DNA from: Methanohalophilus halophilus
Lineage (GTDB): Archaea; Halobacteriota; Methanosarcinia; Methanosarcinales; Methanosarcinaceae
NCBI RefSeq assembly: GCF_001889405.1
Contig: NZ_CP017921.1
Span: 222,057-262,056, forward strand
Reading direction: 5' to 3'
DNA length: 40,000 bases
The notes under the pieces are model-generated. The model was not told the DNA's origin, made no database searches, and was given only the letters and a program-made list of their open reading frames with translations. A program made the position numbers and the translations under genes. Positions 10,366 through 28,048 of this stretch are shown piece by piece. The stretch's first letter is position 1. The number at the start of each line of letters is the position of its first letter.

Positions 10366-11967
10366 TCATTCATAATCAAAACTATAATAAATATATTCAC
10401 CATAGGGTTCGTCTCCATCTGAATTACCTTCTTCATCTTTTATTTCAATCGGTGTTAATTGCTTATCTTCATCATAAAACGAGATATCATTCTCCTTCAG
10501 AACACTGAAATAATCATCATTATCTAAAAGACCTGAATCATTTGGCGTAATCCATCCTTTCATTGTTGCTTCATAAGTCAACAACCACTTATTTTCGTAT
10601 AGTGATTCTGATGTTAGTTCATCAGCTAAAAAAGATGTATCTAAATCTGAATCAAGTAAATTTTTGTTTATCAGATCCAACACCAAAACCTGTGGAATAA
10701 CATCATTAGAACGAAGAATCGTATTCGCAAAATTTGCTGGGATTTTTATTTCAAATGTCTTAGCCATCCATAAAATCCATGAAAGTTCATAAGAATGCTT
10801 TTTGTAAAGATGTTGACCAAGTAATGTATGAATCAGATCTTTTATTTTGTTTTGGTTTTTAAATTCCTTATAATACAATAAAATTTCTATAATTGGTTTT
10901 ATTGTTTTTGCATCCAATAAAGTGCATTTAAATAATAGCGATTCAAACAAATCCCAATTTGATTCATAAATTTCATATTCTTTTATTCTTCTGATCGCAT
11001 ACTTAAGTACATGTTCACTTCTGTGTTCATCGAACAAATCAAAGGCCAAATTAAAATATTTCCAAATATCTTTTTCTTGCATGGATTCGTTTTTCCTTAA
11101 AGAAAAAGTACTTAGAGATAAAACCCATGGATCATCATAAGCCATTGGATAATGATTAATAATTGTTTTTTGTTCGTTTAAGACTAATTGATACTCATTT
11201 AAAATAGATTGTAAATAGACAATAAGGTTGTCAACATGATCTCTGTTTGACAAATAGAAGCAATAATCATCATAGTACCTATAACCCTTAAGATCAGGGA
11301 ATTCTTCTTTAAGTTTTTGATCTATTGCACAAAGTATAATTTCAGCAATAATGTGAGAATTATCAGGCCCGGTAGGAATTCCATTTGTTTGGCCTGACTG
11401 ACACGCTCTCATATATTTATCTAGTACATTGCCATAATATCTTTGGTAATCATTACGATTGTTTTTTGCTTCCTCTTTGGTATGCAATGCCCACGGAATT
11501 GAATGTGTGTAAATAGAAGGGTAAAACCAGGAAATATCTGTTTTTAGTTCAAACATTCTATCATAAGAACAAGTAATACATTTCTTCTTATATTGCTGAA
11601 ATGAGTTTAGAGTTTGTATCGAACGTTTATTTTTTGGATTTTCAAAACAATTTTCGACGGGCCTGCTTGTAGAAAGTTCTGATTTACTACAATGAGCTTT
11701 TATTTCTGCCCAATTATCAATTATGAATTTTGATAAATAAAATTGAGATATGGGGTTCACAATACTTAGTTTTCTTCTAATATGATTCTTTTTAGGAATC
11801 AAGTAATCCGTAAGTTGTGTATTTGGTATTTTAGGAACATCATTTCTAGATGTCGGATTCCATTGTGAATCAATTATTTGATGTTTGCTTGCAAAAGATT
11901 CTGTTGAAAATGCAGGAGGTAGTTCTTTTGGAAAATATCCATTTTCAAGTAAATTTTTAAGATTCAT
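10366..11967 (-). CDS. Reverse transcriptase of the defence-associated UG/Abi type (AbiK/Abi-P2-like architecture: RT domain + helical-repeat C-terminus)
   Basis: 533-aa ORF. It has RT motif A (KTDISWFYPSIYTHSIPWAL), a motif B-like segment (NGIPTGPDNSHIIAEIIL) and motif C YxDD (GYRYYDDYCFY). The N-terminal GYFPKELPPAF motif and the ~250-aa helical C-terminal region match non-LTR, non-group-II, non-retron 'Abi' RTs. No maturase/X domain or En domain is visible. Confidence 0.8.
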   Translation of the reverse strand: MNLKNLLENGYFPKELPPAFSTESFASKHQIIDSQWNPTSRNDVPKIPNTQLTDYLIPKKNHIRRKLSIVNPISQFYLSKFIIDNWAEIKAHCSKSELSTSRPVENCFENPKNKRSIQTLNSFQQYKKKCITCSYDRMFELKTDISWFYPSIYTHSIPWALHTKEEAKNNRNDYQRYYGNVLDKYMRACQSGQTNGIPTGPDNSHIIAEIILCAIDQKLKEEFPDLKGYRYYDDYCFYLSNRDHVDNLIVYLQSILNEYQLVLNEQKTIINHYPMAYDDPWVLSLSTFSLRKNESMQEKDIWKYFNLAFDLFDEHRSEHVLKYAIRRIKEYEIYESNWDLFESLLFKCTLLDAKTIKPIIEILLYYKEFKNQNKIKDLIHTLLGQHLYKKHSYELSWILWMAKTFEIKIPANFANTILRSNDVIPQVLVLDLINKNLLDSDLDTSFLADELTSESLYENKWLLTYEATMKGWITPNDSGLLDNDDYFSVLKENDISFYDEDKQLTPIEIKDEEGNSDGDEPYGEYIYYSFDYE

Positions 11968-12112
11968 TGTGAAGTTTATACTATCGTATCAACATTTAAA
12001 TTTTTGTATTCATTTCAAAAAATTTTGCCGAATTCTAGTGTACTTATAACTAAAAAGAATAGGGCAGTATATAGTTAATAATAAAAAAAGCAAACACTTA
12101 GAAATTGTTTAT

Positions 12113-12587
12113 ATGACTTTACATTATGAGATAATTGCCGAAGAAAACATGTTGAAAATATTCCAGCCTTTATGCAATAACAAGATTGACTGCCACTACT
12201 TCCAATGTACTGGATAAATGCAAAGGTATTAATTATAACAAAGAACGGGAAGGACAGACCAAGCCATTAAGCAATACGATTCTTGAGTATGTGAATCATC
12301 CATAACATAAGTTTGAGGATTATATTGGTGTTCTTGAAAGGAAGCATATTGATATTGATGGTTTCGTGTATATTGGCAAAGAGGCCAATGAGATTGATGA
12401 GCAAACTATGGACGTTTCAAGGCCACAGAAATTCTTGAATAAGGGATATGTTATGCAGAAGATACTTGATTAATCTCAAAAACAGGATGAGGAATGGGGA
12501 GTAGATAGAAAGACGTTTCAGAGAATCAAGAAGAGGATAATTGAGAATAGTGACATTAAATTGAATACTGTTGCTGTAAAAAACTAA
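12113..12587 (+). pseudogene. Casposon PolB C-terminal fragment (frameshifted, internally deleted)
   Basis: Translations across frames give TLHYEIIAEE, SLYAITRLTATTSNVLDK, KPLSNTILEYVNHP*HKF and RKHIDIDGFVYIGKEANEIDEQTMDVSRPQKF. These are collinear with residues ~655-888 of the intact PolB at 21018-23684 (KLHYGIISEE, SLYAISQLTVSTSNVLDR, KPLSNTILEYIDHPEHKF, RKHIDIDGFVYIGKEANDIDEQELDVVRPQKF). The fragment contains stops, frameshifts and a large internal deletion. Confidence 0.85.
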
Positions 12588-12656
12588 CTTCATCTTTACT
12601 TAGTTAAAGTTAGTAATAAGAAAACGTTTTCTAATGTTAGAGATAATAAAAAAACT

Positions 12657-13532
12657 ATGACGCGGCTCAAAGAAAACACTATTAACCAATTATCACGCTT
12701 GATTTGTGGTGAGGATTTTGATTTTTTACCGTATCGCAAATCATCTCAATTAACTGATTTTTTTCAAGAGCTTGGTTTTGACTATACTCATGATGGATCT
12801 ACCCGAAGATATTGGGTAAGAGACGTGTTAAGCGAAATAAACACCGAAACACCTTCAGATTCCGTATTTCCGTCTCCAGAAATAATTGCTGTAATTGAAC
12901 ACATATTAAATCCAGTGAATTTTCTTGATCTTCCTGATTCTGAAGAAAAACAAAATTTAGGCATTGAACGTGTAAATAAGCTGTTATCTTTACAAGACTT
13001 GTTTGTTGAAAAAGAAGAAAACGGTGCTGTTCAACTTCATTCTAGAAAAGGTGACTTTGTATCTACATCAGTAAATAGGGATGAGAAAAAAAGAGTGATG
13101 ACTTTTTCTCCTTCTGTTTTTGAATTGCCTAAAGGTTCCACAATGAAAAACTGCGTTTCCATAATGATGCCTTTTTCGAAAGAATTTGATAATGTATATT
13201 CCGCAATAAAAGCAGCCTGTGTTAGCGAAGGAATACCCTTTCACAGAGCTGATGATTTCTGGAAAAATAGTGTCATAATTCAAGATATTTTTGAACTAAT
13301 ATGCCGTTCATCAATTGTTATTGTTGATTTTTCAAATAGAAATGAAAATGTATTTTATGAAGCTGGTATTGCCCATACTTTAGGAAAACATGTTATACCA
13401 ATAACTCAAAGTATCGACAGTATACCTTTTGATTTGAGACATCATCGGCATATAGTATATCTAAACAATGGCGAGGGTTTGAGAGGGTTAGAAAAAAAGT
13501 TGATTGACCGGCTAGCTTCTCTAAAAGAATAA
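12657..13532 (+). CDS. Two-domain protein: helical N-terminal domain + C-terminal TIR-like / nucleoside 2-deoxyribosyltransferase-like Rossmannoid domain
   Basis: 291-aa ORF. The C-terminal ~130 aa show the pattern VSIMMPFSKEFDNVY..I......G.PFHRADD...........I..SSIVIVDFSNRNENVFYEAGIAHTLGKHVIPI....D.IPFDL. This pattern is typical of TIR-like/deoxyribosyltransferase-like domains, with the conserved Glu in YEAG. Confidence 0.55.
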   Translation: MTRLKENTINQLSRLICGEDFDFLPYRKSSQLTDFFQELGFDYTHDGSTRRYWVRDVLSEINTETPSDSVFPSPEIIAVIEHILNPVNFLDLPDSEEKQNLGIERVNKLLSLQDLFVEKEENGAVQLHSRKGDFVSTSVNRDEKKRVMTFSPSVFELPKGSTMKNCVSIMMPFSKEFDNVYSAIKAACVSEGIPFHRADDFWKNSVIIQDIFELICRSSIVIVDFSNRNENVFYEAGIAHTLGKHVIPITQSIDSIPFDLRHHRHIVYLNNGEGLRGLEKKLIDRLASLKE

Positions 13533-13590
13533 GTTTTGGAGAGGCGATGTTATGAAAAAAGACAATTTCGTCTATAAAGGGGAGTAATAG

Positions 13591-13929
13591 ATGAGTCATG
13601 AAGAACATTCTAAAATAACAAACGGTATCTATGTGTCTTTTGGAGAATTTGTAATTAATTCTGAATTAGTTGTAGAAAATATGAAACTATGTATTTATGA
13701 AATGTTTAGTAAAAGAGTGCTTAGTAATACCTTTGAAGGGCAGCAGTACTTAAATCTACTTTTAGCAGATTTTACATCCGCCCCTGTCAGGATGAAAATG
13801 AGAGTACTCATGGTTGAATCCTATATTAAGTTATCCAGAGACAAAATTCTCTGGTTGTTTTTTATTATTCTGTATGAGAAATCAAAACAAAAAAATATAC
13901 AAAATATTCTCAAATGCAACCTTTCATAA
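13591..13929 (+). CDS. Hypothetical small protein
   Basis: 112-aa ORF preceded by a purine-rich SD-like ggggag about 8 nt upstream of the ATG. No recognisable motifs. Confidence 0.35.
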   Translation: MSHEEHSKITNGIYVSFGEFVINSELVVENMKLCIYEMFSKRVLSNTFEGQQYLNLLLADFTSAPVRMKMRVLMVESYIKLSRDKILWLFFIILYEKSKQKNIQNILKCNLS

Positions 13930-13990
13930 TACTCAATAATCTTCAGGCAATATAATTGTGAATTTTCCTATTTCGTTTATTGCAATATAG

Positions 13991-14156
13991 ATATTCTGCC
14001 GTATTCCACTGGGCAATTCTATCTCTCCTGCTGAAGCTAAAGAAATCGGGATTAATAGTAGGAGTACATTGAATAAATTGAAAAAATAGGGCGAAAGAAG
14101 GGCATTTTAATTTGAATACGAAGGAGATGAGGAAGATATCCTTAAGTTTAATTTAA
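13991..14156 (+). pseudogene. Second casposon PolB extreme C-terminal fragment (HTH tail), frameshifted
   Basis: Translation gives IPLGNSISPAEAKEIGINSRSTLNKLKK*. After a 1-nt frameshift it continues NRAKEGHFNLNTKEMRKISLSLI*. This aligns with the intact PolB tail ILGLTPEDARRIGIKHRSALAYLKKKAKEGELNFKSRNMERIMDAFM. Confidence 0.7.
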
Positions 14157-14176
14157 TTATTCTCTAATCTATTTAC

Positions 14177-15025
14177 TCAAATATGCTTATAAAGACCCAT
14201 TTTAATCTTCCCACCTTCACCGAATTCAAGCTCTGAAAAACTAACTCCTTCAAGAAAGGTCATATCTGAATCTTCATAGCGGATTATATCTGAAATCGGG
14301 AGCTTTTTTAGTTCCTTCCACAAATGAACTTCAGCAGTAAAACCTTTTAACTGATACATTTCAGTTTCAGAAATCTCCATTTTATAGATTTGGTCTTTAT
14401 CAGCAAATGCAACTTTCTTTTGAATTCGAATTCCATCTTCTGGAATATCTTTGAATATTTCACTTTGTTTTACAATTACTTCTTGATAGAACAGTTCGTT
14501 CAAAGATAACTTTTCATTATTGGACATGAATTTTTCTTCATCACTTTCAAATTTAATATTATTACCATTATAATCAACTAATTCAAAAGTAAGTATTTTT
14601 ATAATTTCATATTGCTTATGTATTACTGGTAGACAATCACCTAAAAACCAAGAATGGATATCTTCTTTGCCGATTTGACTTAACACTCGTGTTTCAATTC
14701 CATAATGTTTTGCCGTTGTTTTTGCTGGTTCTGTAAAATCGTTAGATGAAACAGCTATTACTTTTTGAACGTTGAGATTTTGACACTTTGTTGCTAATTG
14801 CTCAATCCACATTGAATCCTGTTTAGTATTTCGATCTCTGCATTCTATGATTATTGTTAAAGGTATGGAGCCAATGTTTGCTTTAATTGAGATATCAACT
14901 TCTCTTTGCTGCCCAGTAATTTTGTCGATTAGAAAATCTGGAGAGGTAATTTCATATTCGTCTTTTGTTAATATTTTATGTAGCAGAGAAACCGTTTCTT
15001 CTAATTCTTTCCCTTTTCGTGCCAT
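14177..15025 (-). CDS. Restriction-endonuclease-fold (Mrr-cat-like) protein with unknown C-terminal domain
   Basis: 282-aa ORF. The N-terminus reads GKELEETVSLLHKIL ... QREVDISIKA ... TIIIECRDRNTKQ ... VIAVSSNDFTEPAKTTAKHYGIE, which fits the D...(D/E)xK nuclease core of Mrr-type enzymes. The C-terminal ~140 aa are unassigned. Confidence 0.55.
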   Translation of the reverse strand: MARKGKELEETVSLLHKILTKDEYEITSPDFLIDKITGQQREVDISIKANIGSIPLTIIIECRDRNTKQDSMWIEQLATKCQNLNVQKVIAVSSNDFTEPAKTTAKHYGIETRVLSQIGKEDIHSWFLGDCLPVIHKQYEIIKILTFELVDYNGNNIKFESDEEKFMSNNEKLSLNELFYQEVIVKQSEIFKDIPEDGIRIQKKVAFADKDQIYKMEISETEMYQLKGFTAEVHLWKELKKLPISDIIRYEDSDMTFLEGVSFSELEFGEGGKIKMGLYKHI

Positions 15026-15180
15026 TAAAAATTAAATTAATTGTCATGGTTAAAAAAGTATCTGATAATGATTTCTTTTTAATGATAAATGTGGTTATTT
15101 GAGTTTTTTATTTTTGGGTAAAGGTGTACATTTTTTCTTAGGAAATTAAAAAAATGGTTGTGCGTACAGAGTGCAAAACG

Positions 15181-15211
15181 CCGTACACTTTTTTCGCGTT
15201 GTATATATCCC
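15181..15211. repeat. Degenerate casposon terminal inverted repeat (right end of decayed distal element)
   Basis: ccgtacacttttttcgcgttgtatatatccc aligns without gaps to the intact right TIR gcgtacaaaaaattggagataactatatccc (19/31 identical). The cgtaca block and the terminal tatatccc sit at the same spacing. It directly abuts a TSD copy. Confidence 0.6.
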
Positions 15212-15225: not shown

Positions 15226-15387
15226 GGGATATAGTTATCTTAGATTTTTTGTACGGTATCTGTATTCTTTGTTCTTACTTAAAATAGAATGATTTATTTT
15301 AATAGTGGTTTTATATATTTGACAATATATTAATTCAAAATATGTTTTGGTTTAAGAGAAATTATTTTGTACAAGTATATTTAATGA

Positions 15388-15750
15388 TTGGGTATGAAGA
15401 AAGATGAACTTTTTATTAGAGAGTTTATTGTTGGATTAGGCTTTGTAAGTGGTTTATGGATTGCTGTTGGAATAAATCCAGAATCCCTAATAATTGAACA
15501 ACTAGTAAAAATTGGGAATACATTAACACCAAAACATAATTTTGGGTTTCTATTAATACTACCAAGCATAACTACTTTAATATCAATTATAAGTGCGTGG
15601 TTTTATGGTGGAGTTTTGGGTATGATTGCTATATTACTTGCTTTTATTAGTGGCATACTAATAATTCATTTTACCATGATAGCATCTGTTTTTTTGATGC
15701 TTTCTTTATTATTGGCTTCATTATCTGTAGATAATAATTATACTTATTGA
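15388..15750 (+). CDS. Small integral membrane protein (about 3 TM helices)
   Basis: 120-aa ORF with hydrophobic stretches: VGLGFVSGLWIAVGI, FGFLLILPSITTLISIISAWFYGGVLGMIAILLAFISGILIIHFTMIASVFLMLSLLLASL. Confidence 0.55.
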   Translation: MGMKKDELFIREFIVGLGFVSGLWIAVGINPESLIIEQLVKIGNTLTPKHNFGFLLILPSITTLISIISAWFYGGVLGMIAILLAFISGILIIHFTMIASVFLMLSLLLASLSVDNNYTY

Positions 15751-15764
15751 ATTGATTCATGGCC

Positions 15765-16070
15765 TTAATAAACATAATTAATAAGATAGTTATTGAGATT
15801 AGATATGGTTTTGTATTGTAATTCTATTAAGTCAGGTAATTTTTTAACAATTGGTAGTTCTTGGCTATAAATACTTGTGGGATATATGACATTTCTAAGC
15901 CTTGATTTGCTATTACTTTTTGTTCTTATCGGATAACGTGATAATATTGAATGAGTTAGTGGGATTTTTGCTAAAACATAAAGTGGTCCCAATACACTTA
16001 TGAATTTAAGGGCCTGCAATATTATTTTTTTTATATCAATCGAAAGTTGCAGTAATTGTGAGTCATTCAA
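15765..16070 (-). CDS. Hypothetical protein downstream of the HEPN gene
   Basis: 101-aa ORF located 6 nt downstream of the HEPN gene stop on the same strand. It has no recognisable motifs and is not an MNT nucleotidyltransferase (no GS...D.D motif). Confidence 0.4.
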   Translation of the reverse strand: MNDSQLLQLSIDIKKIILQALKFISVLGPLYVLAKIPLTHSILSRYPIRTKSNSKSRLRNVIYPTSIYSQELPIVKKLPDLIELQYKTISNLNNYLINYVY

Positions 16071-16076
16071 TTCAGA

Positions 16077-16664
16077 TTAAATATTAACAGATCCCAATTG
16101 TTCTTTATCTATATATTCACATTTCTCAAAATTACTAACTAATTGATTTATATTGTCTTTCCATTGTTTTAGATCTATCGAAGATTGATCTAAGGATTCA
16201 ATACTTTTTTTAATAGAAATTTCTAATTCAGAGACACTCTGAAAAATATCATTTATCTCGCGGGTTGATAAGAAATAAGGATTACGCTTAGATTTTTGCA
16301 TCTTGCCAATTTCCCGCAAGCCATTTTCACAGTGTACTATATTTTCTTCAGGTGATATTTCAATCAAAGAAAATATTTCATTAATTTCTGGAATATGATT
16401 AAGTAATTTAGCAGATCTTTGATATTTTTCTTTTTGGTCAATAAGCATTCTTTTATATATTTCCATAGGATCGTGTCTGATTTCTAGCATGGATTCTTCA
16501 TCGAATTTTCCAGAAGATAAAGCAAGTGCTTTGTTTGCCTTTTCCACACTTTGGGCAAAGAAAAAGATTGATTGTGGATAACATTTATTTTCATATAATA
16601 CAACTGAAGATTTTAAATCAGATTTTGCGAGTTTTACAAATTCTTTTACATATTTCATACTCAT
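16077..16664 (-). CDS. HEPN domain protein
   Basis: 195-aa all-helical ORF. The N-terminal signature AKSDLKSSVVLYENKCYPQSIFFFAQSVEKANKALAL is the classic HEPN helix 1-2 pattern (A..DL..A........y.....a.Q..EKa.KA). Confidence 0.65.
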   Translation of the reverse strand: MSMKYVKEFVKLAKSDLKSSVVLYENKCYPQSIFFFAQSVEKANKALALSSGKFDEESMLEIRHDPMEIYKRMLIDQKEKYQRSAKLLNHIPEINEIFSLIEISPEENIVHCENGLREIGKMQKSKRNPYFLSTREINDIFQSVSELEISIKKSIESLDQSSIDLKQWKDNINQLVSNFEKCEYIDKEQLGSVNI

Positions 16665-16705
16665 TCTCTCGTATATAATTATGCCATATTTATACCTTCA
16701 CTCAA

Positions 16706-16786
16706 AAAACACAACAAATTTATAATTCATCATATAAATCTTACTGCATAATAATTGTGTGATAAATTATAAATTTGTTGTGTTTT
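16706..16786. promoter_or_regulatory. Perfect 22-bp inverted repeat in the divergent intergenic region (operator or RNA hairpin candidate)
   Basis: aaaacacaacaaatttataatt (16706-16727) and its exact reverse complement aattataaatttgttgtgtttt (16765-16786), separated by 37 bp. It lies between the divergently oriented HEPN gene and the 754-aa gene. Confidence 0.6.
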
Positions 16787-16958
16787 ATTAAGTGTGGGGA
16801 ACAGATTTCTATAGAAATTACTACCTCTGGATAAACAACACAGATAGATATTATAATGATAGATTTAAATGAAAAATGCTTAATAAAGACCTACAAAATA
16901 TATAATATGAAGAAGAATGAAATTTTAATTATGGAATATCAGATACAATTTACTTGGA

Positions 16959-19223
16959 TTGAATAGCATGGGCACATATAAAAAAGAGACGCATAGCAAA
17001 GACTTATATGAGCTATATAAGCATGCAGAGAAAAACACAAAATCCGATTTCATTTCTATTTTTCGATGGTTGCGTAATCAGAATCAAATACTTGGCATAA
17101 ACGATTTACTCAAACTTCAACAGTATAATTCTCCTAACTATGGACATTGGGAAGTACCACTTTCAGTTATCCAATTATACAATATATTGCTTAATTCGAG
17201 AAAGTCTAAAAATATTCTTGATCCAGTAGGGAAATTAGGTTTGTTAGGGGGCATAATCTCAGAAAATGAAAATGTTCAAAATGTCGACATTGTAAGCAGT
17301 TTGCATGAATCTGAAGAAATAATACAATCAGTAAATATGCCAAAAGTTTCGCTTACTATTGGAAATATTATTGATCTCAAAGATAATTTAAAAGATAACT
17401 ACGATGCAATAATAGGCATACCACCAATAAATAACAAGGGGGATGTCAATAATAATTTAGTGGAAACTGCAAAAATGTTGTCCAAGGAAGGAATAATTGC
17501 TTTTGTAGTACCACCTCGCATTGCTTGGGATAAAAGCAAAAAATCAATAAAAGTGTCTCTAGAAAACAACGGATTATACCTGTCAGCATTATTGCAATTC
17601 CGTCCGGGAACATTTACTACAACAAATATACCTTTTTATCTTGCAATTTTTGAAAAAGTCAATCATGATACTTTGTTCGTAGGGGAAGTTCCTGAAAAAT
17701 ATGATGAATATGATGAATTGATAAAATGCTTTTCAAAAAGAAAAGAGGGAGAAACTATAAATCAAGGAAGATTGGTAGACCCCAATAATTTTAATGGGAT
17801 CAAATCTCTCAAAGCAAAAGAAAGAGCAAAAAAACTTGCTTCAGAAAGAGGACTTAAACCCATTCCTTTTGATAAGGTAGTTCACACAATAAATACTCCT
17901 AAAAAGAGAGGAAAAGATTTTGAAAGATTTGATGAACACCCAGATGCGGTTTATTTGCCTCAAATGGCAACAACAGAAGCAAAAACTCATCAAAACGATC
18001 TATCTCCGAAATTGAAATCATATTTGCAACTGATAGTCAATCATGATGTTGTTTTACCTGAATATTTAGCTGAATGGCTTAATACAACATTGGGTATTGC
18101 CTTTCGGGAATCAGCAATGCAAGGAATAACTATACCCAGAATAAATAAGAGCAATCTTCTATTAAGTAACCTTTACTTGCCTTCTGTTATAGATCAGCGT
18201 AAGGCATTAGATGCTCTTCTTTCAATTCAAGAAATGAAGTCTGATCTAGATGAGCTTGGGTCCAAAATATGGTATCAACCTTTAAATGTGTCAGAGGTCA
18301 TAACATCTTTAGAAAAAATTAATAGAGAGGAAGTATTTGGCGATTGGATAGAATCTCTTCCATACCCCCTCGCTTCAATTCTTAGATCATATGATACAGT
18401 AGACCAAACAGACAAAGACAAATATGAACGGCTCTTGCTTTTTTATGAAGGATTTGCTGAATTTTGCGCAACGGTGCATATTAGTGCATTTAAGAAACAG
18501 CCAGCTATTTGGGAGCCATTGAAAAATAAAATAAAACAAGTAATGGCTGAGAATAATTTTTCATTTGAAAAACCAACTTTTGGTTTGTGGGCCTCTATAA
18601 CAAGTATATTGGCGAAAGAATTACGTTCAATGATTAATGGAAAACAAGATGATAAAGATGCTACAAATGCACTTTATGAAACAGCTGATTTAGAACCATT
18701 AGAAATATTGTCATCCAAATCTTTAGTTAATTTAATAAACGAAACTAATAAAAAACGCAATGATTGGAGTGGTCACACAGGGGCTGTTTCCCAAAAAGAA
18801 GCTCGTGAAAGACATGACCACCTGAAAAACCAACTATCAAATTTGCATAAAATAATAGGTGATCTCTTCCAACAATATAAGCTTGTGGAGGCCGAGCCAT
18901 CAGGAATTGATGCTTTGACAGAGTCAAAGTTTAAGTGTAAAGTTAAATTAGTAATGGGTTCAAATCCTCTTCTTGAACGTCAAACATTGCAATTGAGTAT
19001 GACGTTAATTACAGGGTCATTATATATGTATAACATTGGAAATGATAGGGTTCTTGAACTGGTCCCATTTATTCAGGTCACTGAATCTCCACAATCTGCT
19101 AGTTACTTCTATAATAGAGTGGAAAAAGAAGGGTTACGCCTTGTTTCTTATCAAGTTATTAATGAATCAGAAATATTTAGAAAAAATCAGTACCTAGAGG
19201 ATTTGATAAAAAGTTTTACTTAA
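16959..19223 (+). CDS. Fusion protein: degenerate N6-MTase-like domain + HsdS-like TRD + C-terminal helical domain with HEPN-like Rx5H motif
   Basis: 754-aa ORF (TTG at 16959, first ATG at 16968). It has a Rossmann-like ILDPVGKLGLLGG and an atypical motif IV, AIIGIPPIN (I instead of N/D/S before PP). An HsdS-like segment reads GITIPRINKSNLLLSNLYLPSVIDQRKALDALLSIQEM. The C-terminal helical region contains KKRNDWSGHTGAVSQKEARERH. Confidence 0.55.
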   Translation: MNSMGTYKKETHSKDLYELYKHAEKNTKSDFISIFRWLRNQNQILGINDLLKLQQYNSPNYGHWEVPLSVIQLYNILLNSRKSKNILDPVGKLGLLGGIISENENVQNVDIVSSLHESEEIIQSVNMPKVSLTIGNIIDLKDNLKDNYDAIIGIPPINNKGDVNNNLVETAKMLSKEGIIAFVVPPRIAWDKSKKSIKVSLENNGLYLSALLQFRPGTFTTTNIPFYLAIFEKVNHDTLFVGEVPEKYDEYDELIKCFSKRKEGETINQGRLVDPNNFNGIKSLKAKERAKKLASERGLKPIPFDKVVHTINTPKKRGKDFERFDEHPDAVYLPQMATTEAKTHQNDLSPKLKSYLQLIVNHDVVLPEYLAEWLNTTLGIAFRESAMQGITIPRINKSNLLLSNLYLPSVIDQRKALDALLSIQEMKSDLDELGSKIWYQPLNVSEVITSLEKINREEVFGDWIESLPYPLASILRSYDTVDQTDKDKYERLLLFYEGFAEFCATVHISAFKKQPAIWEPLKNKIKQVMAENNFSFEKPTFGLWASITSILAKELRSMINGKQDDKDATNALYETADLEPLEILSSKSLVNLINETNKKRNDWSGHTGAVSQKEARERHDHLKNQLSNLHKIIGDLFQQYKLVEAEPSGIDALTESKFKCKVKLVMGSNPLLERQTLQLSMTLITGSLYMYNIGNDRVLELVPFIQVTESPQSASYFYNRVEKEGLRLVSYQVINESEIFRKNQYLEDLIKSFT

Positions 19224-19587
19224 TGAAAGAAGGGAGTTATGAAGATTCTAACTATTACCAAATATAATATAAAAAGTACTCTTAGACAGTTTCCAAAAAA
19301 ACAATCATTAATGATGAAAATATATTCTTTTCATCAGCATTTCGAGTATCCATGCACAAAGTGATAAATGTATTTTGAGTAGTAGGTCCTTTCAAAAATA
19401 GATTAATGCAGTTTGGTCAAATGTTGCTTTTTATTAGTTAGTAAGTATAAAATACGAATTAATATAATTTTTTGGTGGTTGTATTTTTCAATTCTACCTA
19501 TAACCCCGATTTTATGTGTGAGTGATAAAATTCGAACCAAAACTTTCTAAAATTCTGAGTATCTTATTTTCAGGATACCTATATCCC

Positions 19588-19601: not shown

Positions 19602-19632
19602 GGGATATAGTTATCTCTAATTTTTTGTACGC
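19602..19632. repeat. Casposon left terminal inverted repeat
   Basis: See the casposon feature (19602-28529). This TIR matches the reverse complement of 28499-28529 at 30/31. Confidence 0.9.
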
Positions 19633-19845
19633 TAAGTATTTACAGACTTATTTAAATTAACTACTGGGTTAATCTTTTAAATTGAAACCCAGATAAATGT
19701 ACAGAACGTTCAATTCACATCTTCTTTTAAAAGAGTGTCACTTTTTCGCAAAAGGAACATTTTTATAATAAACGGTTTATGATCCATTATCATTATACTT
19801 TTTTATAAAATGATGTAATATATCATGTTAAATATAGTTTGATTA

Positions 19846-20787
19846 TTGGGTGGTATTATGTATTGCCATAATTGTGGTTCAGAAATAGATGATAATGATG
19901 CTGCATTTTGCTCAAAATGTGGAACTAAAATCAAAAAAATAGAAAAAGAAATATTGTCCTCTACACTTGATGTAAAAAATGAAGAAAGTAGGAAGGATGA
20001 ATCATATATTGAGTTAGATACAGCCAACCAAAATAACACATCTATTAAAAAAGAAAATCCAGATTCGTGGGTTTTTATAAAAATATGTGCATATATAATT
20101 TGTGCTGTGGTTATTTCTTCCTTATTTATAGGCCTGTATAATATTGGTAGTGATTTTTATGGGGGTGAGGGAGCGTTTGTACAAGGTGAAGGTGGAGAAG
20201 GATTCGTTGCTTCAAATTCTGATATTACCCATAGCTTAACACAAGAACAAAAAAACACTCAAATTTGTGAAGAAATTGTACAAAACTACTATGAAACCCA
20301 TACATACGTATCGGATGATGTTTTTGATTGCGATAACATGGCAATGGATGTTTGGAATTTAGTAGAAAGTAAAGGAATAAATGCTGAAATTGCCGTGGGT
20401 AATGTAGATATGAAGGATGCAAATTTAGAAGATATCAATCATGCTTGGGTAATAGCAGAAGTTTCACCACAAAATTGGGTAGCTATAGAATGTACCAGTG
20501 GTTATCTTACATATGATGATGTGTATTATTCGGGTTGGTTCTTTGACAACCCTAAAAACTATCAAAGTTTTTTAAATGTATATACCACTTGGGAATATAA
20601 ATATCAAGAATATGAAAATTATAGATTATATTATAATGAATTGGTTGAACAGTTTAATGAGGCTGATGCCTATGAGCAAGCCTCACTAAGAAGTGGTCTT
20701 GAAATTGCAAGAGAAAATCTTCATCAAAAAGAAAGAGATTTTTTACAGGCTAAAACCGAATTAAATGCATTATTAGAATATGGGTAA
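19846..20787 (+). CDS. Zinc-ribbon / TM / transglutaminase-like cysteine-protease-fold protein (casposon cargo)
   Basis: 313-aa ORF whose likely true start is the ATG at 19858 (MYCHNCGSEIDDNDAAFCSKCG zinc ribbon). It has one TM helix (WVFIKICAYIICAVVISSLFIGLY). A Cys...His...Glu/Asp arrangement (FDCDNMAMDVWNLVESKGINAEIAVG ... INHAWVIAEV ... WVAIECTSG) resembles the transglutaminase-like core. Confidence 0.6.
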   Translation: MGGIMYCHNCGSEIDDNDAAFCSKCGTKIKKIEKEILSSTLDVKNEESRKDESYIELDTANQNNTSIKKENPDSWVFIKICAYIICAVVISSLFIGLYNIGSDFYGGEGAFVQGEGGEGFVASNSDITHSLTQEQKNTQICEEIVQNYYETHTYVSDDVFDCDNMAMDVWNLVESKGINAEIAVGNVDMKDANLEDINHAWVIAEVSPQNWVAIECTSGYLTYDDVYYSGWFFDNPKNYQSFLNVYTTWEYKYQEYENYRLYYNELVEQFNEADAYEQASLRSGLEIARENLHQKERDFLQAKTELNALLEYG

Positions 20788-21017
20788 ATATCATTATGAA
20801 ATTGAATATATTTCAAAAACATCTTTCCAGAAAACTTCAAGGACTGCAACAATTAAAATTACAGTTTCATCGCGAAAAGCTTTATTGTTTAAATTATTGA
20901 TTTTTTCAAAATTTATTTCAAATGCTTTGTTAATATCTTGTATTCATGGATTTTATCATTTTGAGACATAAACAAAATAATGTATGTCAACACTTATTGT
21001 TTTATTGATTCAGAGCT

Positions 21018-23684
21018 TTACATAAAAGCATCCATAATTCTCTCCATATTCCTACTCTTAAAATTCAACTCTCCTTCCTTTGCTTTTTTCTTCAAGTAAG
21101 CCAAAGCACTCCTATGTTTAATTCCAATCCTTCTGGCATCTTCAGGAGTTAAACCAAGAATAAACTTCTCCACTGCTTTTCCATCAATGAACTTTTGAGG
21201 TCTTACAACATCCAACTCCTGCTCATCAATATCATTGGCCTCTTTACCAATATACACAAACCCATCAATATCAATATGTTTTCTTGCAAGAGTGCCAGTA
21301 TCACCCCCAAACTTATGCTCTGGATGATCTATATACTCAAGAATCGTATTGCTTAATGGCTTGAAATAGTAAGATCCTTGCCTGACTTCTCCAGTCTGAT
21401 AATCAATAAAAGACTCATAAACTATCTTCTGATAATCCTTAGTAAAAGGTGCTAAAGGCTTGACAACCTTGTCATTTTCTTCTGTTGTCTGAAACCCAAC
21501 CAGAAAGAAATTGAATGGTTTGATCTGTTCTCTCCATTCCTTGACAGCATTAAGATCCTTGAATCTATCCAATACATTGGAAGTACTGACAGTAAGCTGA
21601 GAGATTGCATACAGGCTAGAATATTTCTCAACAATATCTTCCTCAGAAATAATCCCATAATGTAACTTGAGTATATCTTGCCAAATTTCAGCCTGCCAAT
21701 CTTCAACATCCTTTGGAAACGGATTTGTTAAATGACCAAGCCCATGAAGTTTGTAAGATCTCTCTCCTTCCATGAACTCAATTTTATCCTTGTTTAAGTT
21801 GTAGAGTGCATATCTCTTGGAAGAGATCCCATAAAACCACATATCCTCTTTCTCAGGCTTCAATAAAGGAATATCCAGAGCATAAGGATTCAATGGCTGG
21901 AAATAATCAACTATCTCCTGTGCATTTTCAGGAGGAACAAAGATTGAATCTGTATCCATATAAGCATGAGTTCCACCAAGTTCTTTGAGTCTGGCTTCAG
22001 CCATAGCCAGAAAAAGCCTTGAACCTGCTGTAATCATGACTGCCACAAAAGGATGATAGAAATTACCTGGCTTTTCAAACCTATTCTCTGAAGTACTGAA
22101 ATCATCAAGCCCATAAACCTGAATATCACTTTTCTTATCTTCTGGATTAAGTTCAATAAAGATCCCATAACTCATTGCGTTAACAAGAATCTTGATGGCC
22201 TGTGCTCTGCTCTTTAGATGTTGATATTCAGGATCTTTTTTATCAAGACTTTTCATATCCTGTTTTATCTTTTGCCTTTCCTCAACCATTATCTTGGTTA
22301 GGCTTTCTTTGGATGGATCAATATTTATTCCAAGTATCTCCTGAATGTTCAAGTCATCCTGAATCCCAACAGGAACAAACTTGACAGCCTCTATGATCTC
22401 AGGGGTCTTTCCAGTTAATAGGACAGAACCGATAACATCAGGCAAAGCATACCATAAACCATCTTTAGAACTTACATGATTTAATCCAACATTATAACTC
22501 TCATTCTTGCCTTTGTAATCCATCCTTACAGGCAATATATCCTCATCTGGTTTCAATTTAACAAGGATATTGAAATGAGGCCAGTTATCTGGATTTTGTA
22601 AATAATCAAGATCTATATTGGAAAGAATCTTTTTTGCTTCCTCTGTTGCATCTTCAGTCTCAATCCTGTCAGCAATCAAAAATGGCCAGAGATCCAACAT
22701 TAAAGTAATAGTAGGATACATACTGGTAAAATCAAGAACTGTAACTTGGGTTGGTGTTTTCCTGATCTTGCATTCACACCTGCCACCAAAATAAGCAGTC
22801 ATTATATTTCCTAACATCTCAGGAGAGAAATCAGGATTCTTTTCTAAAAATGGGTTTATTCCAATTTGTTTCATGGCATGTTTACCAAGAGAAGCAGCAC
22901 TAAACACTCTGGTTATGGGTATATCAATACCATAAAGATCCAGTTCTTTCACAAGTTCCCTGTAAACTTCAAAAGTAGTTTTGACATCAGTTACAAGATA
23001 GTCAATATACTTCTCAGTAACTCGGCCATGTTTTATATTCTTCTTTTTCTTAATGTTGGTATTGAGCCTCTCTCCTACCTTATCAAGTGAAATATGATTC
23101 TTTGATTGAAGGAGTACTTCAGCCAGTTTTTGAGCATCTAAAAAGTATCCCCCAAAATACTCTTTACCCTTGTTTTGCTTGGTTGTTGTGAATTTGAAGG
23201 AATAAGCAGTACCAAGTTTTTTGATAACAATTGGGGGTTTAACTCTATCATCTGACAGAGTAAGAGTAAACCCACCTTTGTTTTTCCCTCTGGAATTTCC
23301 AGATCTCTTGGCTATCCTGCTTATATCAAAGGCCAGATTGAATCCAACACATAAAGTTTGGAAATCATATACCTCTGTATAGAACACATTATCTACAAAA
23401 TCAGATAGAGTATAGATAGATATAGTATGTCTAGATGCATAGATATTCAAGGCTCTTGTTTCCCTTACATCCAGCATTGAAGGATCATAAAATAACCCTT
23501 CATGCTGAATATAGCCATCCTGATATATCTGGAAATATCCAATTTTCATGTTTTGGTACTGGTCTGTTGTAGTCTCAGTATCAAAGACCAATACTCTATC
23601 ATGTCTCAAAGGTGTGGTTGGAGTTTCACCCTTCCATGCTTTCTTTTCTTTGTGGGTGTATCCCCTCACAGCAACCTTAGTCAT
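21018..23684 (-). CDS. polB: Protein-primed family B DNA polymerase (casposon PolB)
   Basis: 888-aa ORF with Exo I (VLVFDTETT), Exo II (GFNLAFDISRI), Pol motif B (KILVNAMSYGIF), Pol motif C (HAYMDTDSIFV) and a C-terminal HTH-like tail. Confidence 0.93.
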   Translation of the reverse strand: MTKVAVRGYTHKEKKAWKGETPTTPLRHDRVLVFDTETTTDQYQNMKIGYFQIYQDGYIQHEGLFYDPSMLDVRETRALNIYASRHTISIYTLSDFVDNVFYTEVYDFQTLCVGFNLAFDISRIAKRSGNSRGKNKGGFTLTLSDDRVKPPIVIKKLGTAYSFKFTTTKQNKGKEYFGGYFLDAQKLAEVLLQSKNHISLDKVGERLNTNIKKKKNIKHGRVTEKYIDYLVTDVKTTFEVYRELVKELDLYGIDIPITRVFSAASLGKHAMKQIGINPFLEKNPDFSPEMLGNIMTAYFGGRCECKIRKTPTQVTVLDFTSMYPTITLMLDLWPFLIADRIETEDATEEAKKILSNIDLDYLQNPDNWPHFNILVKLKPDEDILPVRMDYKGKNESYNVGLNHVSSKDGLWYALPDVIGSVLLTGKTPEIIEAVKFVPVGIQDDLNIQEILGINIDPSKESLTKIMVEERQKIKQDMKSLDKKDPEYQHLKSRAQAIKILVNAMSYGIFIELNPEDKKSDIQVYGLDDFSTSENRFEKPGNFYHPFVAVMITAGSRLFLAMAEARLKELGGTHAYMDTDSIFVPPENAQEIVDYFQPLNPYALDIPLLKPEKEDMWFYGISSKRYALYNLNKDKIEFMEGERSYKLHGLGHLTNPFPKDVEDWQAEIWQDILKLHYGIISEEDIVEKYSSLYAISQLTVSTSNVLDRFKDLNAVKEWREQIKPFNFFLVGFQTTEENDKVVKPLAPFTKDYQKIVYESFIDYQTGEVRQGSYYFKPLSNTILEYIDHPEHKFGGDTGTLARKHIDIDGFVYIGKEANDIDEQELDVVRPQKFIDGKAVEKFILGLTPEDARRIGIKHRSALAYLKKKAKEGELNFKSRNMERIMDAFM

Positions 23685-24018
23685 GTTTCATCAACTCATG
23701 TCCATAACTGAGCAACTGATCCCCTATACCCCTGAGTAATGCACCAACTGAGATAAACCAAAATCCCCTCTGTTCAATAGGTTTGGCCTTTTTTGACCTT
23801 TTTTTAGGACTTACCTTGTTCTGTTCTGCTGTAGTTTTGAAATGGCAGCTCTTGCATAGAGGAATTGTTTCATCAGAATTGCATCTACCATAAACATGAT
23901 GCATCTCTATGACAGAAAGATCATCCTCTCCACATTCAACACAACAAAGAGATGTTTGCTTGTTTCTCTTCTGCTTCCTTGTAGCCTTTAGATATGTTTC
24001 TTTATCCATCTGTATCAC
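23677..24018 (-). CDS. HNH endonuclease
   Basis: 113-aa ORF with CCVECGEDDLSVIEMHHV ... TIPLCKSCHFKT (HNH/zinc-finger signature). It overlaps the PolB start by 8 nt, which suggests translational coupling. Confidence 0.85.
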   Translation of the reverse strand: MIQMDKETYLKATRKQKRNKQTSLCCVECGEDDLSVIEMHHVYGRCNSDETIPLCKSCHFKTTAEQNKVSPKKRSKKAKPIEQRGFWFISVGALLRGIGDQLLSYGHELMKHD

Positions 24019-24023
24019 CTCCT

Positions 24024-24665
24024 TTAGCTCTTGTAAATCTCCAGAAATTCAGGTTCTTCAATAGTTTCTCCAATTTCATACAGTCTCTCAAGGCTGGTCT
24101 CAAGTCTGTACTCGTTACCATCAGCATCCTTTATCTTCATATCCTTGAACTTCTCAAGACCTGAAGGATCTCCTGTTTTCAAGGCCTTCTGTACAGCAGC
24201 AAAATATTTTCCAATCCTTGATCTATCTCTGGAATTGGTGACAACAATACTGGTTACTCCTTCATCTTCAGAGTAGATCAGCATTTCAGACTGAATAGAA
24301 TCAGTTTTTGTGACCTGCCATCTGCCACCCTCTTTTTCCAGATGTGTTCCAAGATGCTTGAGAGCAAACTGTTTGTTTACTCCAAGTTTACTGGTGGCCT
24401 CACTCAGAGTTTTACCATGTCTCATTTTCCTCAAAATTTCAAGGGATAGGTTTCTATCCCTTTTCTGACTTGAAGACAGGTTTTGCCATACTGTATTGCT
24501 GAGGTCATAATCACTTATCTTCAGATTCCTTAATTGCTTCAGACTTTTATCAGGGGAATACTGATGTTTCCTGATTATCCCCTTTGCATACCTGGAAGTC
24601 CTTGATTGAGCATTGAGCCACTCACCATAGGTTCTGTGCTTTCTGGAGAAACGTGGTCTTCCCAT
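24024..24665 (-). CDS. HTH DNA-binding protein (casposon core-associated)
   Basis: 213-aa ORF with an HTH-like segment KTLSEATSKLGVNKQFALKHLG. It is in the same operon as HNH and PolB. Confidence 0.6.
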   Translation of the reverse strand: MGRPRFSRKHRTYGEWLNAQSRTSRYAKGIIRKHQYSPDKSLKQLRNLKISDYDLSNTVWQNLSSSQKRDRNLSLEILRKMRHGKTLSEATSKLGVNKQFALKHLGTHLEKEGGRWQVTKTDSIQSEMLIYSEDEGVTSIVVTNSRDRSRIGKYFAAVQKALKTGDPSGLEKFKDMKIKDADGNEYRLETSLERLYEIGETIEEPEFLEIYKS

Positions 24666-24805
24666 TATTTCTCAGCCTCCCAGAGTTTCAGTAATGCTAT
24701 CCTGATAACTTCAGCCTGAGAGCATCCAAACTTATCTGACAACTGTACAAGTGTCTCCTTGAGATAAGGAGAAAGTGTTGTTATTATTCTTTCACTTTCA
24801 TTCAT
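24665..24805 (-). CDS. Small ribbon-helix-helix (CopG-like) protein, absent from the supplied ORF track
   Basis: Manual translation of the minus strand gives MNESERIITTLSPYLKETLVQLSDKFGCSQAEVIRIALLKLWEAEK* (46 aa). This is a beta-strand followed by two helices with the typical S..EVIR.AL pattern. Its TAA overlaps the ATG of the next gene by 1 nt (ATAATG). Confidence 0.5.
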   Translation of the reverse strand: MNESERIITTLSPYLKETLVQLSDKFGCSQAEVIRIALLKLWEAEK

Positions 24806-24939
24806 TGGTTTTCACCAATAGACTGTATGTACAGCCATACTGATATTAACAATGATATTGATTTTAATACTAAAATGAGCATTAATGATATAAACCATAA
24901 CAAATATGATATTATATTAGATAGTGAGAGGTAGAAATA

Positions 24940-27050: not shown

Positions 27051-27163
27051 TTAAGTATATTTTTTTACACAAAAAGGTGAATATAAGCAACTATATTTTT
27101 TATATAATTTTATATCTTATAGACTACAAAAATGATTTATAGAATTTTGTTTCATTTATACAT

Positions 27164-27838
27164 ATGCATAGTTTGGAAGTAGTCACTCTTTTTTTACAAG
27201 CAATTGTAACTCTGTATGCATTTTTCTTTGCAGTATATGCGCTTGGGATAAAAAAATATGCTAAAAATATTACTTATCATTCTTATTTTGACGCAATATC
27301 ATTAGCAGTTTTAAGTTCTATATTTATATATACTTTAATGCTGTTCATTTATTCACAAGATTTAAATTTATTATCTTTTTATATTCATATCAATATATTA
27401 GAAATTATATTGAGTTTTATAGAACGTTCAAATATTAATTATTTTAATGTTGCATATAGTATATTCATTTTTATAATCGGATTGATGTTTATATATGCAA
27501 AGATTTTACTGGATTTGAATAAGTCAGAAGAAAGATTTTCCCAAAAAATAAGTAATATTCAGCTAGAAAAGGGGAAGGTAAAACCATTATTTAAAATAAC
27601 TTATTACATCTTTAAATATTACTTGTCTAACATGGGGATCTATGGAAATTTAGTATTTATTTTAATGTTAATTTTTCTTGTTTTACAATTTCCAGAGATA
27701 TCCTTTTTCGGATTAATTACATTTATTATTGGAGTTTATTTGTTTTTAGGGGCTTTTATTTTTATAACAACATTAATCATATTTTGTGTTTCATTTTGTA
27801 AAGTAAGACTACTCCAAAATAGACTGAAGCATCTCTGA
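27164..27838 (+). CDS. Polytopic membrane protein (casposon cargo)
   Basis: 224-aa very AT-rich ORF with at least 5 hydrophobic helices. No family assignment. Confidence 0.5.
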   Translation: MHSLEVVTLFLQAIVTLYAFFFAVYALGIKKYAKNITYHSYFDAISLAVLSSIFIYTLMLFIYSQDLNLLSFYIHINILEIILSFIERSNINYFNVAYSIFIFIIGLMFIYAKILLDLNKSEERFSQKISNIQLEKGKVKPLFKITYYIFKYYLSNMGIYGNLVFILMLIFLVLQFPEISFFGLITFIIGVYLFLGAFIFITTLIIFCVSFCKVRLLQNRLKHL

Positions 27839-28048
27839 GGCCACATAAACATAAAAAGAACTTACATAGTATAATTATTTTTAATTATGCAGATGCTTTG
27901 AAAACGTATTATTCTTGTTCAATTACTTAAATAATATTTGAGATAATATTACAAAATCTAGTGCTTTTAAAGATAACTTTAAGTAAAATATTATTTCTAA
28001 AAATATTACAAAAGATTCAAATAAATTCTTATAAAAATATATTAGATA

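Follow-up and report, generated by a model that had tools for sequence, protein, structure and literature searches.

A reverse transcriptase of the DRT6 (UG12) family as probable casposon cargo in the archaeon Methanohalophilus halophilus

A stretch of 40,000 nucleotides from the archaeon Methanohalophilus halophilus (Methanosarcinaceae), called the window in what follows, harbours on its minus strand a gene for a reverse transcriptase (RT) of 533 amino acids (aa) which we take, with a probability of roughly three in four, to be a functional member of the DRT6 (UG12) family, brought into this organism as a passenger located next to the terminal inverted repeat (TIR) of a family-2-type casposon. 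The exact protein is annotated in this species, the same locus is found in another of its assemblies, and the gene recurs unchanged in read sets and assemblies that are independent. The preliminary description of this DNA had spoken of an archaeal casposon graveyard, and this image is borne out by a tandem array of casposon-derived elements, which result from repeated insertion where a tRNA-Leu gene has its 3′ end and which are named here, in their order along the window, D, C, B and A, element D, to which the RT belongs, being the oldest. The literature already describes this enzyme family together with its structure and mechanism, and no new kind of enzyme or system is described here. What is new, as read from the sequences, is the identification of a casposon RT as a DRT6-family protein, its conserved placement between TIR and PolB in four loci, and the purifying selection that has acted on it after decay of the casposon in M. 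halophilus. This matters in a domain of life where UG/Abi RTs have been said to be represented by "only a few examples" (PMC9226505).

An intact reverse transcriptase of the DRT6 family

The open reading frame (ORF) starts with ATG and displays the three motifs A, B and C that the preliminary description had recognized in it, namely DISWFYPSIY, GIPTGPDNSHIIAE and YYDD (the codons of the latter at 11266-11277), and it terminates with GDEPYGEYIYYSFDYE. RVT_1 is the sole Pfam domain found in the protein. That description had proposed a placement by profile hidden Markov models (HMMs) built for UG/Abi/DRT enzymes, and this gives a match to the Drt6 model of PADLOC (PDLC03748) over the full length of the RT (aa 1-520, E 4e-173, 574.9 bits), followed at a distance by the UG15-derived Drt4 model PDLC03752 (299 bits), by UG30 (283), UG14 (187) and AbiK (184), the score of the Abi-P2 model being also far under that of Drt6. 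The protein scores 267.6 bits with the Drt4 equivalog model NF041749 of NCBIfam, for a cut-off of 450, and it is therefore not a DRT4 proper. Models of group II RT/maturases (TIGR04416, 34.7 bits for a cut-off of 300, in the RT core only) and of the St85 retron (30 bits for a cut-off of 235) also stay far below their thresholds, in keeping with the early remark that maturase, endonuclease and retron features are missing.

Comparison with the sequences of solved structures leads to the same family. The best phmmer match is 9wy8, a DRT6 (E 6.6e-92, aa 3-507), ahead of DRT4/UG15 (about 1e-31), Abi-P2 (1e-23) and AbiK (about 2e-20), and a genome scan retrieved a locus from Sphingopyxis sp. (L050; 35% identity) with the very statistics of the 9wy8 match, Sphingopyxis being the organism from which the DRT6 validated by experiment was taken. 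The AlphaFold model, for which 79 homologues were used (mean predicted local distance difference test score, pLDDT, 93.3; predicted template modelling score, pTM, 0.91) displays an RT domain, then an all-helical domain (aa ~280-492), then a disordered tail (aa 514-533). The helical C-terminal extension of about 250 residues and the acidic, tyrosine-rich tail noticed at the outset are thus both recovered, the tail, with its terminal GDEPYGEYIYYSFDYE, being predicted as disordered (pLDDT <50). In a Foldseek search the top match of this model is 9wy8_A, entitled "Cryo-EM structure of the hexameric DRT6", with TM-scores of 0.88/0.95 and a root-mean-square deviation of 2.0 Å over 507 columns at 34% identity. 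The model also superposes on UG15/DRT4 (0.78-0.79), on AbiK (0.67-0.74) and on Abi-P2 (0.54-0.62), and the RTs of group II introns (about 0.35), retrons, DGRs and DRT2/DRT9 rank far lower. The assignment to the AbiK/Abi-P2/UG class of defence enzymes, first proposed from the architecture, was therefore correct at the level of the class and can be made more precise: sequence and predicted fold place the RT, among the class 1 UG/Abi reverse transcriptases, in the DRT6/UG12 group.

The gene also bears the marks of integrity. Among 248 non-redundant relatives the residues D144, D233, R64, K168 and Q193 are conserved in 100% of cases and D234 in 99%, so that the catalytic residues, whose fate across homologues had been singled out as a critical point, are kept throughout, and every residue that is invariant in the family is found in the M. 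halophilus protein, in a reading frame that is full-length. The ratio of non-synonymous to synonymous substitution rates (dN/dS) with respect to a relative that is 82% identical (locus L001) is 0.16, in a range of 0.15 to 0.23. Family match, fold, invariant catalytic residues and dN/dS of 0.16 together make this RT an intact and selected member of the DRT6 family.

A probable passenger at the end of a casposon

One and the same module is found in the three nearest relatives of the RT (60-82% identity), where a tRNA-Leu gene or a TIR is followed by the RT gene and then by a convergent gene for the casposon DNA polymerase, PolB. The most informative of them, L001, displays in succession tRNA-Leu (1-86), a target site duplication (TSD), a TIR, the RT (+), an intact PolB of 905 aa (-), HNH-like and HTH-like genes and Cas1 (+), that is, the left TIR, the TSD and the core genes of a casposon as far as its contig of 6.35 kb reaches. 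The second, represented by L002-L004 (60%), combines a degenerate tRNA-Leu, a TSD, a TIR (GGGATATATATAAATC...), the RT (+) and a convergent fragment of PolB (aa 697-875), and the third, L092 (63%), starts inside the TIR (TATACAACTCAAATTATGGCAACG) and presents the C-terminus of PolB (GIKHRSTL...) convergent with the RT gene, and overlapping it. Since the same placement with respect to TIR and PolB recurs in these related loci, the RT can be understood as a TIR-proximal passenger of a casposon lineage. In a neighbour-joining tree the four RTs (that of the window, L001, L002-4 and L092) are monophyletic, within a group of eight which also comprises one protein from Methanosarcina sp. and three from unassigned metagenome contigs. 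Beyond this group the next relatives are at most 45% identical, and they are bacterial where the source is named; no casposon gene was found near the RT in any of about 165 more distant loci.

Locus L002 (JGI 3300042272, an archaeal contig of 119 kb) is itself both a casposon graveyard and a defence island, where a tyrosine integrase, a Mrr_cat gene, the degenerate tRNA-Leu-TSD-TIR succession, the RT, the PolB fragment, a HEPN gene and a type I restriction-modification (R-M) system with a Bro-N gene follow one another between positions 3699 and 17560. The RT (60%) is the sole close pair that it shares with the window, the HEPN proteins being 33% and the HsdM proteins 27% identical, and the two regions are therefore best seen as independent graveyards, in which like cargo was gathered separately.

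So stable an association might lead one to think that the RT serves the casposon rather than its host, either through protein-primed synthesis or end processing during replication and transposition, or as an addiction or competition module: the TIR-RT-PolB linkage has been kept in four loci although synonymous sites among the casposon RTs are saturated (dS 1.4-1.8), and the position of the gene beside the TIR is fixed. Yet most casposons, the intact element A of the window included, lack an RT and have other cargo in that slot, purifying selection on the RT has outlived the loss of its casposon core, and its nearest characterized relatives are stand-alone defence genes, all of which makes a role in the service of the casposon quite improbable. 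A bolder form of the idea, which may be somewhat less improbable while still unlikely, is that an archaeal casposon lineage retained a DRT6-type protein-priming RT in its TIR-proximal slot for its own benefit. The RT would then be no casual hitch-hiker, and would act as an abortive-infection or anti-competitor module stabilizing the casposon, or in protein-primed synthesis for its replication; this would be the first route shown for the spread of a DRT of bacterial type among archaea.

A probable junction of two elements between the reverse transcriptase and PolB

What is left of the casposon that carried the RT, element D, has lost its PolB/Cas1 core and, from the alignments, consists of the RT gene, its promoter and a decayed TIR. 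Because nothing else remains than this TIR and a TSD-like copy, it must be considered as a remnant and not as a casposon. In a blastn comparison, positions 110-1718 of L001 correspond to 12038-10431 of the window at 83.7% identity, the match starting inside the TIR of L001 and spanning the RT, and the reverse strand of the window from 12061 to 11968 aligns with the TSD, TIR and leader of L001 and L002 (TATTCTTTTTAG / TTATAAGTACA-CTAGAATTCGGCAA...), with the outermost bases of the TIR mutated. The 9-mer ATATAGTTA is present in four copies in the window for 0.56 expected; three of them are verified TIR tips, and since the fourth, at 12069-12077, sits in the spacer between RT and PolB in the orientation of a left TIR, the following element, C, starts at about 12062. 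The PolB stub comes directly after this left TIR, and this implies an internal deletion in element C, from just inside the TIR to codon ~674 of PolB.

The stub itself, searched by tblastn with the intact PolB of 888 aa, gives a match at 12156-12536 (E 4.5e-28). Its translation begins at about 12116 with LHYEIIAEEN, for LHYGIISEED at codon ~674 of the intact protein, and is interrupted by in-frame stops; at the nucleotide level it aligns with the intact gene in two blocks, of 82% and 74% identity, between which some 150 bp have been deleted. The preliminary description had placed the break at about 12113 with a loss of some 655 codons; the remnant is real, though it starts at about 12116 and the missing codons number about 673. 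Its remaining sequence is 55% identical (96 aa) to PolB of element A, versus 38% to the PolBs that are linked to an RT. The stub belongs to element C, and its resemblance to PolB of element A is consistent with two separate elements that abut, not with the replacement of one gene by another.

The early proposal, in which the insertion of an RT cassette would have cost a casposon PolB gene its first ~655 codons, RT and stub then stemming from one event, took its appeal from the fact that the start of the RT and the break of PolB face each other with only about 150 bp between them. That spacer, however, carries a TIR/TSD-like/TIR junction, in related loci the RT has a TIR on one side and the 3′ end of a convergent PolB gene on the other, and does not lie at a PolB break, the stub is nearer to PolB of element A than to those that accompany an RT, and the truncation is explained by the internal deletion in element C; a replacement event is for these reasons not supported, and no more credible than an enzyme in the service of the casposon. 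Somewhat weaker still is the view that the RT would be a non-functional relic which has not yet accumulated disabling mutations. The decay of its surroundings, where PolB is a pseudogene, the TIRs are degenerate and the core is gone, could suggest as much, against which stand the full-length frame with all its family-invariant residues, the dN/dS of 0.16 with a relative 82% identical, the conservation of a TATA-like element, and a gene sequence that does not vary between independent read sets and assemblies of M. halophilus.

A stand-alone gene

No long ORF is present in the 146 bp that precede the RT gene, nor in the roughly 1.27 kb that follow it. Far from being merely non-coding, as was first thought, the upstream segment holds a conserved TATA-like box, the decayed casposon TIR, the TSD-like copy and, from element C, the tip of a TIR. 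The box, TTTAAAT, is probably an archaeal TATA box, and would drive a leaderless or short-leader transcript of the RT. Nucleotide homology between the window and L001 covers the coding region and continues upstream of its ATG for no more than about 70 bp, and among the homologues no flanking non-coding sequence is conserved beyond TIR and promoter. The stop codon of the RT is 3 nt from that of PolB in L001, and the two genes overlap in L092, which leaves no space for a 3′ non-coding RNA (ncRNA) in these loci.

Rfam detected no family at E<=1 between 8900 and 12800, neither Intron_gpII nor its D1-D4 domains nor any retron ncRNA, and nothing but noise at E<=10 between 9050 and 10400; the intron RNA structure that could have flanked the gene was thus not recovered there. 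Compared with shuffled sequences, the folding of the 146-nt upstream spacer (z +0.29), of the AT-rich 716 nt downstream (-1.04) and of the GC-rich 381 nt farther downstream (+1.27) shows no significant excess. Besides casposon parts, no gene is conserved in the neighbourhood of the RT, and the comparison of loci indicates that it is a stand-alone gene, with neither an associated ncRNA nor an effector gene. That the RT would be class 2-like or retron-like and copy an ncRNA whose gene would lie in its long flanks, a thought suggested by their 146 bp and 1.27 kb and by the existence of the ncRNA-dependent systems DRT2, DRT3 and DRT9, is very hard to believe in view of the Rfam and folding results, of flanks that are not conserved, of two relatives with no 3′ intergenic space, and of a sequence and a fold that group the enzyme with the ncRNA-free DRT6 and DRT4.

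A group II intron fragment was considered at 9100-9650, where GTGCG is found on the minus strand, and was rejected: Rfam gives no match there at E<=10, the z-score is +1.27, and the position is downstream of the RT ORF instead of around it. The downstream flank had also been described as rich in repeats. Tandem Repeats Finder reported nothing in it, and its sole repeat-like feature is a 12-nt direct repeat, ATGGTAGTGGTG, at 9969-9980 and 10027-10038, which brackets a small imperfect hairpin (GAACACGGGC ... GACCCGTGCTC).

How the enzyme may act

The bacterial relatives of the RT provide a detailed precedent. DRT4 forms a hexamer which makes random single-stranded DNA (ssDNA) with neither template nor primer, initiated on its Tyr125, and ExoI/SbcB, a 3′-5′ exonuclease of the host, removes the product; when ORF55 of phage T5 binds the 3′ end of ssDNA, the latter builds up and the cell dies (PMC12783706). 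DRT6 likewise performs template-independent synthesis of DNA that is covalently attached to it, with activation by ORF55, dependence on sbcB and abortive infection (PMC12783706), and UG12 confers on E. coli an antiviral protection for which the RT active site is required (PMC9226505). By analogy, the archaeal RT would form a hexamer and would start DNA on one of its own tyrosines, without RNA template or nucleic-acid primer. The random ssDNA so produced would stay covalently bound to the enzyme and would normally be cleared by 3′-5′ exonucleases of the host, until, during infection, a viral protein that binds ssDNA ends shielded it, causing its accumulation and the death or arrest of the cell. 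Protein-primed, untemplated synthesis of ssDNA for abortive infection is, on the strength of this kinship, the likely function of the RT, and the defence-rich surroundings of the gene comprise type I R-M, Mrr and HEPN functions.

The disordered, acidic and aromatic-tipped tail is probably a peptide for partner docking or regulation. Tails across the 248 family members are net acidic in 50% of cases and end with an aromatic residue in 76%; the combination, an acidic and aromatic-tipped tail, is seen in 36% of them versus 2% of control windows. Such ends as ...DDYDPDDDPF, ...SLWDDIPL or ...DDFSDF / ...EEFDDFSDF (L039, L040, L045, L058, L068, L163 and others), which belong to members assigned mostly to Proteobacteria, resemble the C-terminal tip of bacterial SSB, to which ExoI and other partners are recruited. 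It may be speculated that the tail of DRT6-family enzymes recruits the ExoI/SbcB exonuclease, an idea which stems from the fact that ExoI/SbcB restrains the toxicity of DRT4 and DRT6.

A separate idea was that a tyrosine at the C-terminus would be the universal priming residue. A tyrosine is found among the last five residues in 108 of the 117 closest homologues, but in 91 of 170 members of the wider family, and the biochemically active DRT6 of Sphingopyxis ends with ...DEDGDIFE. As it is absent from many members, including that active enzyme, the C-terminal tyrosine is excluded as a family-wide primer.

Points that weigh against this reading

Several observations weigh against a functional DRT6-family enzyme brought in by a casposon. 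As regards the family, the PADLOC model with the highest score, PDLC02177, carries the label Drt4 (645 bits, E 2e-194, full length), which makes the choice between the names DRT6 and DRT4 ambiguous; the ambiguity is settled by the solved structures, with E 6.6e-92 for DRT6 versus about 1e-31 for DRT4. As regards the vehicle, a scan of metagenomes for further casposon-linked RTs returned best matches of at most 45% identity with no casposon genes nearby, and no left end, PolB or Cas1 trace of element D was found at 9100-10450 or farther left, noise only. A generic HMM of casposon ends found five clear ends and not the decayed junction at about 12050, which is supported by the 9-mer test and by the direct homology that it shows with L001 and L002.

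As regards the mechanism, the trigger (phage T5 ORF55) and the safeguard (ExoI/SbcB) are known from bacteria, and what is proposed for the archaeal RT is an analogy. Moreover Tyr125, which lies in the palm subdomain and is absolutely conserved in 174 DRT4 systems, aligns with Leu120 of the RT, and tyrosine is not among the commonest residues of that column in the 248 relatives. Two tyrosines that are conserved in 100% of the family, Y153 and Y465, are also found in DRT4, and Y498, in a DRT6-specific FYD motif, is conserved in 96%; the alignment singles out no priming tyrosine for the RT.

The casposon array and its surroundings

The target of the whole array (Table 1) is the 3′ end of tRNA-Leu(UAG), where the 14-bp TSD AGAAAAATAGTGCG is found at 28530-28543, with repeats at 15212 and 19588, each copy flanked by inverted repeats of the GGGATATAGTTATCT type. 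Element A has the Cas1 and PolB core, the TIRs, the 14-bp TSD and the tRNA 3′ end that define family 2 casposons; its PolB, of 888 aa, is intact (21018-23684, -) and its Cas1 casposase is encoded at 25848-27050 (+). Element B codes for a HEPN-domain protein (16077-16664, -), for a protein of 754 aa with no family match (16959-19223, +) and for two small ORFs, and looks like a cargo-only casposon derivative for which element A could provide mobilization in trans. In element C, the space from the PolB 3′ end to the right TIR is taken up by cargo, namely a 291-aa protein (12657-13532, +), a 112-aa ORF (13591-13929, +) and a Mrr-like nuclease (Mrr_cat, 282 aa; 14177-15025, -). The 291-aa protein has no match in Pfam, in NCBIfam or among PDB sequences, and its C-terminal part weakly matches a PADLOC model of a TIR-type effector (E 1.4e-5). 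Together with the Mrr_cat-like protein, it may represent defence genes in the slot that the RT uses in other casposons.

Table 1. Position of the RT, of its parts and of the casposon elements in the window.
Feature	Position	Strand	Evidence
Gene of DRT6/UG12-family class 1 UG/Abi RT, 533 aa, intact	10366..11967	-	ORF, PADLOC, PDB match, Foldseek, dN/dS
RT (fingers/palm) domain, aa 1 to ~280; catalytic D144, Y231-Y-D233-D234	11128..11967	-	Pfam RVT_1 at aa 141-271
All-helical C-terminal (alpha-repeat-like) domain, aa ~281-510, predicted	10438..11127	-	AlphaFold, pLDDT >90; full-length alignment to DRT6 and DRT4 structures
Disordered acidic Tyr-rich tail, aa 514-533, last residues DYE, predicted	10369..10428	-	pLDDT <50
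Conserved TTTAAAT element, 27-33 nt 5′ of ATG	11994..12000	-	Sequence; same AATTTAAAT(A) element at equal distance in L001 and L002, similar one in L092
Decayed TIR of the RT's own casposon (element D), tip mutated	12012..12049	-	blastn to L001; pairwise alignment to TSD + TIR of L001 and L002
Degenerate TSD copy between D and C, approximate	12050..12061	.	Aligns to L001 TSD and to AGAAAAATAGTGCG of verified junctions
Decayed left TIR of element C (GGGCAGTATATAGTTAAT...)	12062..12097	+	Exact 9-mer ATATAGTTA at 12069-12077
PolB C-terminal pseudogene, aa ~674-870 of 888-aa casposon PolB, part of element C	12116..12590	+	tblastn, in-frame stops
Element C, internally deleted casposon: PolB remnant and cargo	12062..15211	.	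Right TIR + 14-bp TSD at 15175-15225
Element B, non-autonomous casposon derivative with both TIRs, without Cas1/PolB	15226..19587	.	TIRs, flanking 14-bp TSDs, HEPN match
Element A, intact family-2-type casposon	19602..28529	.	33-nt TIRs, 97% complementary (inverted repeat I4); Pfam PolB + Cas1
tRNA-Leu(UAG) gene (28539-28624), integration target; 3′ end overlaps 14-bp TSD	28530..28624	-	ARAGORN, TSD search

Further traces of past events are scattered in and around the array. A second, tiny remnant of the PolB C-terminus (aa ~845-866, E 0.19) lies at 14021-14086 (+) beside the Mrr-like gene, and L002 has a comparable one (6655-6795; aa 838-884, E 3e-5) directly after its Mrr_cat gene, which suggests additional layers of decayed casposons. 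A 42-nt copy (93% identical) of the 5′ half of tRNA-Leu (28583-28624) is found at 28720-28761, 137 nt upstream of the true gene, and could be a partial duplication of the tRNA or the footprint that another integrative element left at this same tRNA. At the other extremity, between hsdM and the AT-rich casposon DNA, the segment 9100-9650 is GC-rich (about 50%) with no ORF longer than 83 aa, and the sharp drop in GC at about 9650-9850 may mark the left border of the array; a weak TIR-like sequence, GGGTTATAATAATA, at 9846-9859 is not distinguishable from chance. Directly left of the array comes a complete type I R-M operon (hsdR, hsdS, hsdM; 1307-9098), with an extra ORF of 500 aa, without family match, between hsdR and hsdS (4085-5587), and with an ASCH-like domain at the N-terminus of HsdS (Pfam E 1e-4).

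Significance and comparison with known systems

Studies of DRT6 and DRT4 have been confined to bacteria, and this locus provides a clean and intact DRT6 from an archaeon, whose route of acquisition can be traced. Here the RT would be a conserved terminal cargo of casposons, transposons that are related to the CRISPR adaptation machinery, and the locus exemplifies how casposons may act as vehicles and, after their decay, as seeds of defence islands; defence genes annotated by PADLOC have already been counted in 48 casposons. It also offers a test case for abortive infection by untemplated ssDNA against archaeal viruses, where archaeal nucleases and viral proteins would take the place of ExoI and ORF55. 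Finally, a corrected annotation can be proposed for the 'retron-like' RTs that were previously listed in casposons, the RT of Met2HT1A3-C1 being so far a candidate member of the same family only.

The closest of the known systems is the DRT6 of Sphingopyxis (UG12, PDB 9WY8, hexameric). It is collinear with the M. halophilus RT over the full length at about 34-35% identity and shares with it the succession of an RT and a helical C-terminal domain, the organization as a single gene without ncRNA, the acidic disordered tail and the same invariant catalytic residues. The two differ in their setting, archaeal and casposon-borne for the one, a bacterial defence island for the other, in the end of the tail, tyrosine-rich in M. 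halophilus (...YYSFDYE) and ...DEDGDIFE in Sphingopyxis, and at Tyr11, which is a phenylalanine in the latter. DRT4 of E. coli (UG15; PDB 9VDO, 9LTM, 9L9S) has the same fold and the same order of domains (TM ~0.78-0.79), and its way of making random ssDNA from a single gene, as well as the ORF55/exonuclease logic that it has in common with DRT6, would extend to the archaeal enzyme by analogy; identity is however only 24%, the equivalog cut-off is missed, and Tyr125 is replaced by Leu120. AbiK and Abi-P2 (PDB 7R06/7R07 and 7R08) display the class 1 UG/Abi architecture too, and their protein-primed untemplated synthesis may be an analogous activity, but they are far more distant (E 1e-20 to 1e-23, TM 0.54-0.74), they have another oligomer geometry, and their priming tyrosines are located in a loop of the fingers (Tyr44, Tyr61; PMC12783706).

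As for the vehicle, the family 2 casposons of Methanosarcina are known to use a 14-bp TSD and a tRNA-Leu target, and to form tandem copies parted only by the TSD, where the older PolBs are inactivated (Krupovic et al. 2016, PMC4779613), and one of them, Met2HT1A3-C1 from Methanosarcina sp. 2.H.T.1A.3, has among its cargo a 'retron-like RT (cd03487)' (PMC4779613). The window has in common with these elements the core of Cas1, PolB and HNH/HTH genes, TIRs of about 30-60 bp, the 3′ end of tRNA-Leu and cargo such as HEPN and RT genes. It differs from them by its genus, Methanohalophilus, by the assignment of its RT to the DRT6 family, and by the TIR-proximal slot that this RT has conserved in four loci.

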